Notes: generated by a model from the letters alone, not told the origin. Counted from the stretch's first letter, positions 2,324 through 7,444 are shown. The stretch is DNA of 64,000 nt from Planctomycetota bacterium (GCA_019636245.1 JAHBXX010000006.1:8496-72495), one strand, 5' to 3'. A program made the numbers and translations.

Positions 2324-4825
2324 TCAGTCGGCGAGCCCGTGGCGCTTGATCTTCTCGTAGAGCGCCGTGCGCGAGATGCCGAGCGCCCGCGCGGTCTTCG
2401 CCTTGTCGCCGCCGCAGGCCTGCAGCGCCGCCAGGATCGCGCGGCGTTCGACGGCCTTCAGGGTCGCCACCTGGTCGGGCGACGTGGGCGGGGCGGCGGC
2501 CTCGTCGCGCGGCAGCTGCAGGTCGACCACCTCCTCGCCGTCGCTGAGCAGCGCCGCGCGGGCCATCACGTGCTCCAGTTCGCGCACGTTGCCCGGCCAG
2601 CGGTGGCCCGCCAGCGCCGCGCGCGCCACCGCCGACAGGCGCAGAGTGCGGCCGCGCGAGGCGGCGTGCTGGCGCAGGAAGTGCTCGGCCAGCAGCACCA
2701 CGTCGGTGCCGCGCTCGCGCAACGGCGGCACGCGCAGCTCGACGGCTGCGAGGCGGAAGAACAGGTCCTCGCGGAACTCGCCGCGATGCACCATCGCCCG
2801 CAGGTCCTTGTGCGTCGCCGCCAGCAGCCGCAGGTCGAGCGGGATCTGCTCGCTGCCGCCGACGCGGCGGATCGAGCGCTCCTGCAGCGCGCGCAGCAGC
2901 TTGGCCTGCAGCAGCGGCGGCATGTCGCCGACCTCGTCGAGGAACAGCGTGCCGCCGCTGGCCAGCTCGAGCAGGCCGGGCCGATCGCGGTCGGCGCCGG
3001 TGAAGGCGCCTTGCACGTGGCCGAACAGCTCGCGGTCCATCAGTTCGGCGGGCAACGCGGAGCAGTTCTCGGCGACGAACGGGCCGCGGTGGCGCGGGCT
3101 CAGCTCGTGCAGCGCGCGGGCCACCAACTCCTTGCCGGTGCCGGTCTCGCCGAGCACCAGCACCGGCAGGTCGAGCGGCGCCAACCGATCGATCTGCGCC
3201 CGCAGGTCGCGCATCGGCGGGCTGTCGCCGAGCAGCTGCGTCGGCGGCCGCCGCGTGGTGCGCCGCACGAGCGCGAGCTCGCGCTGGCTGGCCGACAGTT
3301 CCTGCGCCAGCGCCCGTTCGCGGAGCATGCGGTCGACGGCGATCGCGGCCTGGTCGGCGAGCACCTCGAGCACATCCTTGTCGGCCTCGTCGAAGGCGCC
3401 GGCGCGGCTGCCGTGCTCGACGTAGATCGCCCCGCGGACGCCGCCGGCCGACCGGAACGGCGCGCACACCGCCGAGCGCACCTGCAGGTTGCGGATCGAG
3501 GGCAGGTCCTGCAGGTCGCGGTCGGCGAGTGCGTCGGCGCCGGTGAGCGTGCGGTGCAGCTCCATCGCCCGGTGCGCCAGCGAACGGCTGAAGGCCAGCG
3601 CCGGCTGGTTGGCGTCGCCGGTCTGCAGTTCGCGCCGCATGCCGTCGGCATGCGCGATCAGCAGGTAGCCGAGGCGGCCGCCGCACAGCGTCACCGCGGC
3701 GTCGAGCAGGTGGCGCAGCGCCTGGTCGAGGTCGCTGGCCTGCGCCAGCTGCCTGTTCACGGCCACGAAGGTGCGGAACAGCGTGCGGCGGTCGTCGGCG
3801 GGCGTTTCGGCCATGATGGTCTCCCTGGCAGCCGGGTTCGGCGGCGGCTGGCGCAGCAGCGCCTCGGTCTGCTCGATCTCGCGCCGGACGCGCCCGCTGG
3901 TCGGCGGGCCGAGCCCGGCCAACGCCTGCCGTGCTGCGTCGGCCGCGCCGAGCGCGGCGTGCGCTCGCGCCAGCATGGCCTGCGCCAGCTGGCCGGCGGC
4001 CTCGTCGCCGAGTGCGCGCAGCGCCGCGGCGCCCTCGCGCAGCCACGGCAGCGCGGCCTCGGCATCGCCCCTGGCCAGCGCGGCGATGCCGAGGCTGGCG
4101 GCGGCGCGCGCCGCGTTGGCCGCATCGCCGCAGTGCAGGAACAGGGCGCGCGCCTCGCGCAGGTGCGCGATCGCCGCCGTCTCGTCGCCGAGGTCCTTGG
4201 CGACCACGCCCAGGTTCAGCAGCGCCGTCGCCGCGTGGCGCGCGTGGCCGAGTTCGCCCAGTTGCGCCGCGGCGGCGGCGAAGTGGTCGCGCGCGGCGGC
4301 GAGGTCGCCGCGCTGCCGCCGCACGTGGCCGAGCGCCGTCTGCAGGCTGGCGTGGAGGAACGGTGGCGGCGGCGCCGGCAGTCGGGCGGCACACGCCTGC
4401 AGCAGGCGTTCGCTGGCGTCGAGCTCGCCCGACTGCTCGAGCGCGGCGGCCAGCGTCAACTGCTCCGCCGGCGAGGCGTCGTCGCGCTGCAGCAGCCGGC
4501 GCACCTCGTCGAGCCGGCCCGCGGCCAGCGCCAATCGGGCCTCGACGCGGCGCCATTCGGGGTCGCTGCGGACCGAGGGCGGGGCGCGTCCGAGTTCGGT
4601 CTGCGCGGCGGCGATCTGGCCGGACTCGCACAGCGCCCGCGCCCGCAGCGCCGGCAGGCCGCCGCAGAACGGCAGGGCCGCCGCCGGCTCGCCGGCGTCG
4701 AGCAGGCCGCTGGCCAGGCGCGGCGCGGCAGGCAGGCGGCGTCCTGGTCGGACCGCCCGCGGCGGCCCGCCGCCACAGGGCGATCGCGCGTTCGCGCTGG
4801 CCGGCCCGGGCGGTGGCTTCCGCAC
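2324..4825 (-). CDS. sigma-54-dependent transcriptional activator portion (TPR-like repeats, GAF, AAA+ sigma-54 interaction domain, Fis-type HTH); probably the C-terminal two thirds of a frameshifted kinase-EBP fusion
   Basis: Carries Walker A GETGTGKE, the GAFTGA loop, Walker B TLFLDEVGDM, the WPGNVRELEH signature, and a C-terminal HTH (KTARALGISRTALYEKIKRHGL). The N-terminal ~30 residues of the track ORF (MRKPPPGPASANARSP...) look non-native, and third-position G/C bias only starts near 4740. Confidence 0.9.
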   Translation of the reverse strand: MRKPPPGPASANARSPCGGGPPRAVRPGRRLPAAPRLASGLLDAGEPAAALPFCGGLPALRARALCESGQIAAAQTELGRAPPSVRSDPEWRRVEARLALAAGRLDEVRRLLQRDDASPAEQLTLAAALEQSGELDASERLLQACAARLPAPPPPFLHASLQTALGHVRRQRGDLAAARDHFAAAAAQLGELGHARHAATALLNLGVVAKDLGDETAAIAHLREARALFLHCGDAANAARAAASLGIAALARGDAEAALPWLREGAAALRALGDEAAGQLAQAMLARAHAALGAADAARQALAGLGPPTSGRVRREIEQTEALLRQPPPNPAARETIMAETPADDRRTLFRTFVAVNRQLAQASDLDQALRHLLDAAVTLCGGRLGYLLIAHADGMRRELQTGDANQPALAFSRSLAHRAMELHRTLTGADALADRDLQDLPSIRNLQVRSAVCAPFRSAGGVRGAIYVEHGSRAGAFDEADKDVLEVLADQAAIAVDRMLRERALAQELSASQRELALVRRTTRRPPTQLLGDSPPMRDLRAQIDRLAPLDLPVLVLGETGTGKELVARALHELSPRHRGPFVAENCSALPAELMDRELFGHVQGAFTGADRDRPGLLELASGGTLFLDEVGDMPPLLQAKLLRALQERSIRRVGGSEQIPLDLRLLAATHKDLRAMVHRGEFREDLFFRLAAVELRVPPLRERGTDVVLLAEHFLRQHAASRGRTLRLSAVARAALAGHRWPGNVRELEHVMARAALLSDGEEVVDLQLPRDEAAAPPTSPDQVATLKAVERRAILAALQACGGDKAKTARALGISRTALYEKIKRHGLAD

Positions 4826-6080: not shown

Positions 6081-7444
6081 TCCTCGCGCACGCGCACCCA
6101 GGTGGCGTCGATCGTGTCGGGGCCGGTGACCGTGCCGCGCCACCAGATGCGGTCGGAGTCGGGCACGATGTCGCCGAGGGGGATCGTCGTCACGCCATTG
6201 CCCTGCCGGGCCCGGCGCTCGATGCGGGTGTCGTCGTCGACCGACAGCACCACCGACGGCACCGACACGCCGTCGATCACGATCGGGTCGTCGTTGCGCG
6301 GCACGACGGTGATCGTGCGGGCCACGGTGTCGACGGCGTCGACGCGGCCTTGCCACTCCGGCTGCATCGGCACGGCGCTGCCGGTCACCTCGACCTCGGT
6401 GGCGACGAACAGCGGCAGTTCGCCGGCCGGCGCGCTGCGCGAGGACCACTTCACCTTGACGAGGTGGCCGACCTGCAGGTCGGCGAAGGCGATCGGCGCC
6501 TGGTTGGGGCGCCGCAGGCGGGCGCCGTCGACGTCGACGCGGATCTGCGCCGGCAGCGGGTTCAGGCGCGGCCCGCCGCGCGGGTTCTGCGCCTGCACGT
6601 CCATCACGAACGTCAGCGTCGTGGGCTCCAGCGCGGCGATGCGGCCGATCAGGCGCGGGTTGTCGTTGCGGCCGCGGCGGTGGGCCTCGCGGGCGACGCA
6701 ACGGCCGTCGCGGCGCAGTTCGCCGCGCACGCGCACGCGGTCGTCGCCGATCTGGTCGAGGAAGCGGTTCGCATCGGTGACGAGGTTGTCGTCGCGGTCG
6801 CGGTAGGCGCAGTCGCCGGCGAACGACACGCGCAGCGGGGCGCGGTCGAGTTCGGCGGCGAGGCCGGTGAAGCCGGGGCGCTCGACGAACGCCACCTGCA
6901 GGTCGTCGAACGCGACCTCGGCGCCGTCGCCGCGCGCGCTCAGCTGCGGTCGCCAGGCCGCGGTCGAGCCGGCGGTCGGGGCCTGGCCGTTGTGGCCGAT
7001 CACGAGCCAGCTGGTGGCGAGTGAACTGTGCAGCAGGCGGTCGGGGATCGGCACGCGTACGTCGACGGTGCCGGTCGCGGGCAGCACGCTGCCATCGGCC
7101 AGCAGGGCGCTGCCGCTGCCGGGCACCAGCAGCAGGCGGATGGCGGCGTATTCACCGGACGGCGCCGAGCGCAGCACCAGGCCGTCGACCGCGCCGGCCG
7201 GGTCGGCCAGCGTGACCAGGTGCGGGTTGGCCAGCAGGTTGCCGGTGGTCGAGCCGTCCGGGTACTCGAGCGCGGCGGCTTCGACCTGGAACTGGATGGT
7301 GACGTCGCTGCCGGTCGCGGTGTCGACGACGACCAGCACGGCGCCGGTGGTGCCGGCCGCGGGGTCGGCGGAGCCGCCGGAACCGCCGCAGGCGGGGAAG
7401 GCGAGGATCGGCAGCAGGGGGAGCAGTCGCAGCAGGTGTCGCAT
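6077..7444 (-). CDS. lipoprotein, hypothetical (possibly DUF4382-like N-terminal half, repeated beta-rich C-terminal half)
   Basis: An internal ATG at 7444 gives MRHLLRLLPLLPILAFPACGGSGG, a signal peptide with a lipobox-like PAC|G. GGAGG lies upstream. The stop overlaps the kinase TTG start. The 72 residues upstream in the track ORF look non-coding. Confidence 0.7.
   Translation of the reverse strand: MRHLLRLLPLLPILAFPACGGSGGSADPAAGTTGAVLVVVDTATGSDVTIQFQVEAAALEYPDGSTTGNLLANPHLVTLADPAGAVDGLVLRSAPSGEYAAIRLLLVPGSGSALLADGSVLPATGTVDVRVPIPDRLLHSSLATSWLVIGHNGQAPTAGSTAAWRPQLSARGDGAEVAFDDLQVAFVERPGFTGLAAELDRAPLRVSFAGDCAYRDRDDNLVTDANRFLDQIGDDRVRVRGELRRDGRCVAREAHRRGRNDNPRLIGRIAALEPTTLTFVMDVQAQNPRGGPRLNPLPAQIRVDVDGARLRRPNQAPIAFADLQVGHLVKVKWSSRSAPAGELPLFVATEVEVTGSAVPMQPEWQGRVDAVDTVARTITVVPRNDDPIVIDGVSVPSVVLSVDDDTRIERRARQGNGVTTIPLGDIVPDSDRIWWRGTVTGPDTIDATWVRVRED

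Follow-up and report, generated by a model that had tools for sequence, protein, structure and literature searches.

The stretch of DNA considered here (hereafter, the window) comprises 64,000 nucleotides from a Planctomycetota bacterium (GCA_019636245.1, JAHBXX010000006.1:8496-72495), and the subject of our analysis is a minus-strand locus near its beginning that encodes a large regulator, in which a Hanks-type Ser/Thr kinase precedes the parts of a sigma-54-dependent transcriptional activator. Read on the minus strand, the locus consists of a lipoprotein gene, the regulator gene, a sigma-54 promoter, a gene for a 195-aa secreted protein and a gene for a 555-aa secreted protein (Table 1). The window has a G+C content of about 74%, so that long open reading frames (ORFs) are open in many frames. 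A first-pass annotation of this DNA, made from the sequence alone, had listed the same elements, and they were found where it had placed them: the lipoprotein ORF with its signal peptide and lipobox cysteine; the TTGA overlap (6080-6077), in which the TGA stop of the lipoprotein gene meets the TTG start of the regulator gene; the near-consensus promoter; the 195-aa ORF; and the following secreted-protein ORF, which runs past the end of the window.

Table 1. Features of the regulator locus and their positions in the window.
Feature	Position	Strand	Remarks
Lipoprotein gene, 455 aa	6077..7444	-	Signal peptide with lipobox Cys19, followed by small beta-barrels arranged in a chain
Kinase-TPR-GAF-sigma-54 activator gene (regulator)	2324..6080	-	Frame-disrupted; 1252 aa after repair
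Hanks-type Ser/Thr kinase domain, non-RD (HLD)	5301..6035	-	Pkinase 57.9 bits (cut-off 31.7)
Linker with four single-base indels	4715..5010	-	~5006 (-1), ~4956 (+1, C4 run), ~4758 (-1), ~4722 (-1)
TPR-like repeat region	3838..4720	-	TPR_12 43.5 bits, weaker TPR_19; homologues with TPR_12/TPR_2
GAF domain	3332..3736	-	GAF_2 53.3 bits, GAF 45.7 bits
AAA+ sigma-54 interaction domain and lid	2480..3232	-	Sigma54_activat 221.9 bits (cut-off 20.2), AAA_lid_14 71.7 bits
Fis-type helix-turn-helix (HTH_8)	2342..2461	-	49.2 bits
Weak palindrome match (11/14)	2284..2298	-	At -58; right half-site TTCCGCACAC alone well kept
Sigma-54 (-24/-12) promoter, TGGCACGACCCTCGCA	2225..2240	-	83 nt past the regulator stop (2324); ~45 nt upstream of ATG 2181
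195-aa secreted protein with signal peptide	1594..2181	-	First gene behind the promoter
555-aa secreted beta-propeller protein, first 507 codons	1..1522	-	Full length: P0115, MBX3462285.1

The kinase, the TPR-like repeats, the GAF domain, the complete AAA+ sigma-54 interaction domain and the Fis-type helix-turn-helix (HTH) that had been proposed from motifs were all upheld by Pfam. The AAA+ part contains GETGTGKE, LFLDE and GAFTGA, and WPGNVRELEH was read in the translation. In the kinase, the motifs HLDLKPAN, DFG and APE are all present, and the catalytic residues are K43, E53, H122-x-D124-LKPxN129, D142FG and GGT157PFFAAPE. No membrane helix was predicted in the repaired regulator, and an FHA domain is absent from its Pfam matches. 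The best NCBIfam similarities of the GAF-AAA+-HTH core are to NorR (338.8 bits) and NifA (338.1 bits), and the equivalog cut-offs of these two models (476 and 528.85, respectively) are not reached.

The first-pass annotation had presented the regulator as a fusion on one polypeptide. The domain order kinase-linker-TPR-GAF-AAA+-HTH stands; in the window, however, the protein is not encoded by one ORF because the frame is broken, a problem at which the annotation had merely hinted through the phrase "frame-corrected protein." The kinase is in frame with position 6080, and the TPR-GAF-AAA+-HTH part lies in the frame of 4825..2324. The frame switches were mapped by tblastn with homologues, a three-frame view, counts of G+C at third codon positions (GC3), and alignment. 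The tblastn search with homologues that read from the kinase into the TPR region in a single frame (P0001, P0003, and P0005) placed a frame switch near 4720, and the three-frame view, GC3, and the alignment resolved four switches instead of one: the coding frame passes from the kinase frame into the third frame at ~5006, returns at ~4956, enters the third frame again at ~4758 and reaches the frame of the activator part at ~4722. In both short segments GC3 peaks in the third frame (0.88 and 1.00). Adding one base at three of the sites and removing one C from the C4 run gives a protein of 1252 aa. It can be aligned over its full length, with 71% identity, to the unbroken ORF of a related locus (L083), which has exactly the same number of residues, and the rescued linker segments WRTARATTAGVARQLLALVEQGEL and RRALASGLLDAGEPAAALPFC match the homologues. 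Left unrepaired, translation from 6080 gives the kinase followed by ~870 out-of-frame aa and ends at 2145, while GTG 4825 starts an open frame of 833 codons that holds the AAA+/HTH part. A reading with two genes, one for the kinase and a separate one for the enhancer-binding protein (EBP), was rejected: the kinase frame stays open as far as 2145, every intact orthologue is encoded by one ORF, and repair yields exactly the length of the L083 protein.

For comparison, nine full-length loci from Planctomycetota metagenome-assembled genomes (MAGs) and metagenomes were available (L003-L008, L083, L087, and L088), together with a tenth related locus, L002, which is cut inside the regulator gene at a contig end. 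In all nine full-length loci the regulator is a single reading frame of 1237-1290 aa. A search of 1.84 billion cluster representatives yielded about 22 clusters at 50% identity for this specific family, with full-length members of 1241-1299 aa. The link between the regulator and the 555-aa gene likewise holds in every one of the nine loci, with the 555-aa gene downstream of the regulator gene in seven of them and divergent from it in L007 and L008.

The promoter is unique in the window, in which it reads TGGCAC-N5-TCGCA: the pattern TGGCAC-N5-TYGCW has one match in 64 kb against 0.08 expected. A GGAGA motif lies 6 nt ahead of ATG 2181. Of the 10 loci compared for the promoter and for the 195-aa gene (the window and the nine full-length loci), eight carry, ahead of the first target gene, a promoter that agrees with GGCAC-N5-TTGC in 9 or more of 11 positions (the window, L083, L003, L004, L005, L087, L088, and L008), and weaker sites (8/11) are found in L007 and L006. 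Since such matches occur at a background rate of about 1 per 10 kb in this DNA, the recurrence of the promoter in the right place and orientation is far beyond chance. No sigma-54 site was found in the 72-nt gap between the 195-aa and 555-aa genes.

In the relatives, a 15-bp palindrome, GTSCGGA-N-TCCGSAC, was recognized upstream of the promoters. Its distance to the first base of the promoter is exactly 36 bp in L003, L005, L087, L088, and L008 and 37 bp in L004; another copy occurs ~31 bp further upstream, at -67 to -69, in L004, L005, L083, L087, and L088. Matches of at least 13/14 number five in 165 kb of related loci, and all of them are at these promoters. In L083 an extra gene for a 245-aa protein has come to lie between the regulator and its target, and the promoter and a half-site stay beside the target. 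The shared gene order, the promoter and the palindrome across the loci indicate that the adjacent secreted gene is the likely target of the regulator, in agreement with the proposal of the first-pass annotation that the promoter directly behind the regulator gene is what it acts on.

The identity of the target had to be revised in one respect. The promoter would drive the adjacent secreted genes, as had been proposed, but the 195-aa gene is found in only three of the 10 loci (the window, L005, and L083), and the partner kept throughout is the 555-aa protein; on comparative grounds it is the latter, and not the 195-aa protein, that is the universally linked predicted target. The full-length 555-aa product is 100% identical to MBX3462285.1 ("hypothetical protein KF830_03870"), which is encoded on a 169-kb contig of a Planctomycetes bacterium MAG. 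A scan of metagenome contigs with exact 26-mers, meant to reveal another assembly of this population, gave no match, and the top hit among genome contigs was 59% identical. Its AlphaFold2 (AF2) model, with a mean predicted local distance difference test score (pLDDT) of 86, is all-beta and gave generic beta-propeller matches only. The 195-aa protein showed no profile similarity to the lipoprotein or to the 555-aa family, and none of the three proteins was matched by a Pfam or NCBIfam family.

Two side observations concern this intergenic region. In the window (2240-2300, minus strand), ~22 extra bp, GTCCACTCCCAGCAC, separate the conserved half-site TCCGCACAC from the promoter when compared with L003, L005, L087, L088, and L008, and they resemble a decayed copy of the palindrome. 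The additional gene of L083 (13204-13941) lies between the regulator stop and the palindrome and promoter of the 195-aa gene, and neither the window nor any other locus contains it; its product has one hydrophobic N-terminal segment followed by a charged, probably helical region, its GC3 is 0.94, and no Pfam match was found for it.

Based on these results, we consider it likely that the locus represents a clade-specific, soluble one-component sigma-54 activator switch, and that the indels of the window copy are an assembly error rather than an inactivation. The prediction that the activator acts at the palindrome beside the -24/-12 promoter and thereby drives the adjacent secreted beta-propeller gene rests on the conserved anatomy of the loci. 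Several points weigh against this interpretation. The N-lobe of the kinase is divergent, with a Pfam alignment that covers only profile positions 49-191 of 263 and a glycine loop that reads GGGEGR versus the canonical GxGxxG; kinase activity, a phospho-acceptor, a GAF ligand and DNA binding are predictions; and no RpoN-box peptide was found in the 64-kb window. The palindrome of the window itself matches at 11/14 at -58 and at 9/14 at -36, which is no better than background (23 sites of at least 11/14 in the window), and its degeneracy is also what relaxed selection following loss of the regulator would produce. About nine other stretches of at least 81% GC in the window lie in unbroken genes, so that a local error cannot be attributed simply to high GC. 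Finally, the entire module of regulator and target has been lost by a clean deletion in a close relative (L085/L086), so natural loss of the system does happen. In this relative, a 111-aa ORF overlapping the lipoprotein stop (L085:9377-9712 and L086:3587-3922) joins the first ~16 regulator codons to the final ~50 of the 555-aa gene (...YLPDGT...RICLSGAGS, followed by a stop); the deletion spares the lipoprotein, which is 68% identical to that of the window, and the RND pump.

The last of these points bear on whether the regulator of the window is a real, recently inactivated or split gene carrying genuine indels. From such a copy the cell would make a kinase that ends in nonsense residues and perhaps, by separate initiation at GTG 4825, a TPR-GAF-AAA+-HTH protein, and the target promoter would be silent or orphaned. 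The indels are present in the deposited sequence, the rest of the 64 kb is unbroken, which suggests generally good sequence quality, and it is in the window only that the palindrome is degenerate; together with the intact GC-rich stretches and the deletion in L085/L086, this makes a genuine lesion a serious, though less probable, explanation. We favor, with modest confidence, a local assembly or consensus error, for which the origin of the sequence from a MAG also speaks. The four indels are confined to ~290 nt of the 3.76-kb gene, whereas neutral indels would be expected to scatter over its whole length, and by our own calculation the chance that four independent neutral indels all lie so close together is of the order of 0.002. 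The out-of-frame segments diverge from L083 no more than the rest of the linker does, the regulator as a whole is 71% identical to its L083 counterpart, like the neighboring genes (68-74%), and elsewhere in the gene there is no in-frame stop and the GC3 signal is undiminished. No Shine-Dalgarno sequence is visible ahead of GTG 4825. That the regulator and the lipoprotein are missing from the protein database is no sign of a pseudogene annotation, since the database contains only part of the proteins of this MAG. The indels sit in the least conserved part of the protein (the linker, 32-59% identity to the orthologues), where the GC content of 81-84% is the highest in the window, and a GC3-based survey of the ~55 genes of the 64 kb revealed no other frame-interrupted gene. 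Whatever its cause, the broken frame means that automated annotation will miss or split the gene.

One further sequence might have served as a natural example of a truncated kinase. P0008 (L001:4261-5685), a 474-aa kinase with linker, was set aside as uninformative: it ends in unrelated sequence just past a GSRWxWP motif, beside an ABC transporter, on a contig labelled with 2x coverage, and L001 could represent a rearrangement or a chimeric assembly.

The kinase motifs are retained in all eight full-length sequences compared, and the family alignment shows no variation at K43, E53, H122, D124, K126, N129, D142-F-G, or A162-P-E. Identity to the orthologues is 48-78% in the kinase domain and 55-79% in the GAF domain. 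The kinase domain has diverged less than the linker and the TPR region have, which argues for a functional kinase.

The architecture may be described as a NifA/NorR-type GAF-AAA+-HTH core extended at the N-terminus by a Hanks-type kinase, a linker of ~180 aa and a TPR array, with the lipoprotein gene presumably co-transcribed and translationally coupled with the regulator. In the mechanism that we propose, an HTH dimer would bind the 15-bp palindrome beside the target promoter, and the GAF domain, together with the TPR array, would keep the AAA+ ring off. In NorR, the GAF domain represses the AAA+ domain until the signal arrives (PMC2941729). Here, a cytoplasmic signal could free the AAA+ domain in the form of a GAF ligand, a partner bound to the TPR array, or auto- or trans-phosphorylation by the fused kinase. 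The freed AAA+ domain would then oligomerize, hydrolyze ATP and open the sigma-54 closed complex, as is established for the bacterial EBP family. Judging by the conserved adjacency, promoter and palindrome, transcription of the adjacent secreted genes would follow: always that of the 555-aa gene, here preceded by the 195-aa gene.

With regard to the role of the kinase, we favor relief of the GAF/TPR-mediated repression by autophosphorylation or partner binding. The stricter proposal, that Hanks-type autophosphorylation in cis (of the linker, the GAF domain, or the AAA+ domain of hexamer partners) is the primary gate of the AAA+ domain, we regard as rather unlikely; if it were true, kinase gating in cis would replace the receiver phosphorylation of NtrC-type activators and constitute a new class of EBP input, and the compact cis-regulatory target, with its two palindromes and -24/-12 promoter, could be rebuilt in vitro. 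The two modules may also be independent outputs of one scaffold, with the GAF domain alone gating the AAA+ domain, as in NorR and NifA, and the kinase phosphorylating other cellular substrates recruited by the TPR array. A GAF-AAA+-HTH protein is by itself a complete regulator of a known type, to which the NorR/NifA similarities of the core also point; TPR arrays are protein-interaction modules, and non-RD (HLD) kinases generally do not depend on phosphorylation of the activation loop. However, the order kinase-linker-TPR-GAF-AAA+ is strictly kept over 41-71% identity and recurs in ~1600-aa paralogues, and no intact orthologous locus has separate kinase and EBP genes; independent outputs seem rather unlikely to us.

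Enhancer-binding proteins are a standard model of signal control over AAA+ machines, and their known inputs include receiver, GAF, PAS, V4R, and FHA domains as well as anti-activators. With NorR and NifA the regulator shares the GAF-AAA+(GAFTGA)-HTH_8 core and a -24/-12 promoter with a palindromic upstream site. It differs from them in ~770 extra N-terminal residues (kinase, linker, and TPR), in scores below the equivalog cut-offs, in having secreted proteins as its predicted targets and in upstream sites that are unusually near the promoter, with distances of ~36 and ~68 bp to its -24 element. With Hanks kinases of the PknB/Stk1 class it has in common the K, E, HxDLKPxN, DFG, and APE signatures, whereas it possesses neither a transmembrane segment nor a PASTA or other extracellular sensor, is non-RD with a divergent N-lobe, and is fused to an activator. 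Mycobacterium tuberculosis PknK is likewise large and soluble, with a Hanks kinase at the N-terminus and an extended TPR/MalT-like region behind it, but PknK is not known to contain a sigma-54 AAA+ domain or an HTH and affects transcription by phosphorylating other regulators. A TPR_MalT match of 25.7 bits, below the Pfam cut-off of 45, was obtained for one paralogue of the ~1600-aa family. In Myxococcus xanthus, FHA-domain EBPs are reportedly acted on by Ser/Thr kinases (Jelsbak et al., 2005). Coupling of Ser/Thr phosphorylation signaling to sigma-54 activators would be common to both; in M. xanthus, kinase and activator are reportedly separate and joined via an FHA phosphopeptide reader, whereas here the kinase is in cis and FHA is absent.

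The ~1600-aa proteins form a second Planctomycetota family, named "sigma 54-interacting transcriptional regulator" by NCBI (P0335, i.e., MBI5434952.1; P0328; and P0412). P0335 and P0412 have the same Pkinase-TPR-GAF-Sigma54_activat-AAA_lid-HTH_8 architecture as the regulator, and so does P0328, except that no TPR match is listed for it. Compared with the regulator, these proteins have a TPR region longer by ~350 aa, and the kinase domains are ~40% identical. Further kinase-to-AAA+ fusions in single ORFs were found in an unclassified MAG (L021:6347-11116) and in a Thermoanaerobaculia MAG of the Acidobacteriota (L063:2444-7702). The first-pass annotation had described such fusions as being catalogued mainly in myxobacterial-type genomes. 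None of the relatives found here is myxobacterial, and in two loci from Myxococcales MAGs (L042 and L060) the EBP and the kinase are separate genes. Its other statement, that the fusion had not been characterized, agrees with our full-text literature search, in which no description of a Pkinase-sigma-54 activator fusion was found. Proteins of the family are already held in databases under generic names. We read the regulator as a variant of the GAF-type EBPs with an added N-terminal kinase. A kinase and TPR array placed ahead of a GAF-AAA+ core would give EBPs a phosphorylation input that is independent of any two-component partner. Comparative genomics has already supplied the promoter, the likely DNA site and the target gene, which makes the hypothesis accessible to heterologous reconstitution although the hosts are uncultured.

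As a separate observation, in L042, L060, and a Verrucomicrobiales MAG (L041), the gene for a sigma-54 activator precedes, by 1.5-3 kb and in the same orientation, one for a Ser/Thr kinase. These separate activator and kinase ORFs possibly represent an unfused counterpart of the regulator.

The lipoprotein had been suggested as a possible periplasmic partner of the regulator. Its N-terminus, MRHLLRLLPLLPILAFPAC, agrees with a family consensus of LLLLAAC-GGGG, and the lipobox C19 is invariant in 25 homologues. All 48 homologues detected are "hypothetical" proteins of Planctomycetota. The AF2 model (pLDDT 83) gave only weak local matches to OB folds (CusF/Mpa). The gene stands upstream of the regulator gene, with presumed translational coupling, in eight loci (the window, L002-L005, L083, L087, and L088), of which the window, L002, and L083 show the 4-nt overlap, and is absent from the three most distant loci (L006-L008); the pair is thus kept in the closer subclade only. 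A direct partnership or sensing role is doubtful, and topologically unlikely, because the lipoprotein is exported and the regulator has no predicted transmembrane helix. More probably, the lipoprotein is co-expressed with the regulator as part of one envelope function and is not its sensor.

Upstream of the lipoprotein gene, the window contains an RND efflux pair (7685-12092, minus strand) composed of ACR_tran (1106 aa) and a membrane fusion protein of the HlyD/CusB type (360 aa), and the lipoprotein might therefore serve this pump instead of the regulator, in which case the 4-nt overlap would be mere operon packing. In the window, L083, and L085 the pair immediately precedes the lipoprotein gene, the lipoprotein stays beside the pump in L085/L086 after deletion of the module, and parts of its model are similar to the OB fold of CusF, a periplasmic metallochaperone. 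We consider a pump-dedicated role improbable: the lipoprotein-regulator pair persists where no RND pump adjoins it (L002, L003, and L005), with an amidohydrolase gene upstream in L002 and a gene for an unrelated ~720-aa protein in L003 and L005. Moreover, ~240 nt separate the pump stop (7685) from the lipoprotein start (7444), yet the lipoprotein gene overlaps the regulator gene, and the CusF matches are local and weak (E ~0.06). Co-expression of the lipoprotein with the regulator within one envelope function is the interpretation we retain.

The proteins encoded upstream of the lipoprotein gene in L003 (3978-8326) and L005 (6293-8452) are paralogues of ~720-750 aa, two of them in tandem in L003. 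At least two have N-termini resembling signal peptides; they belong to no Pfam family and have no counterpart in the window.

Outside the locus, one region of the window (51400-56900) attracted attention in the GC-frame plot, which flips between plus and minus frames every 100-250 nt inside the ORFs 51446-53431 and 54876-56828; the composition of this region is unlike that of the other genes of the window.

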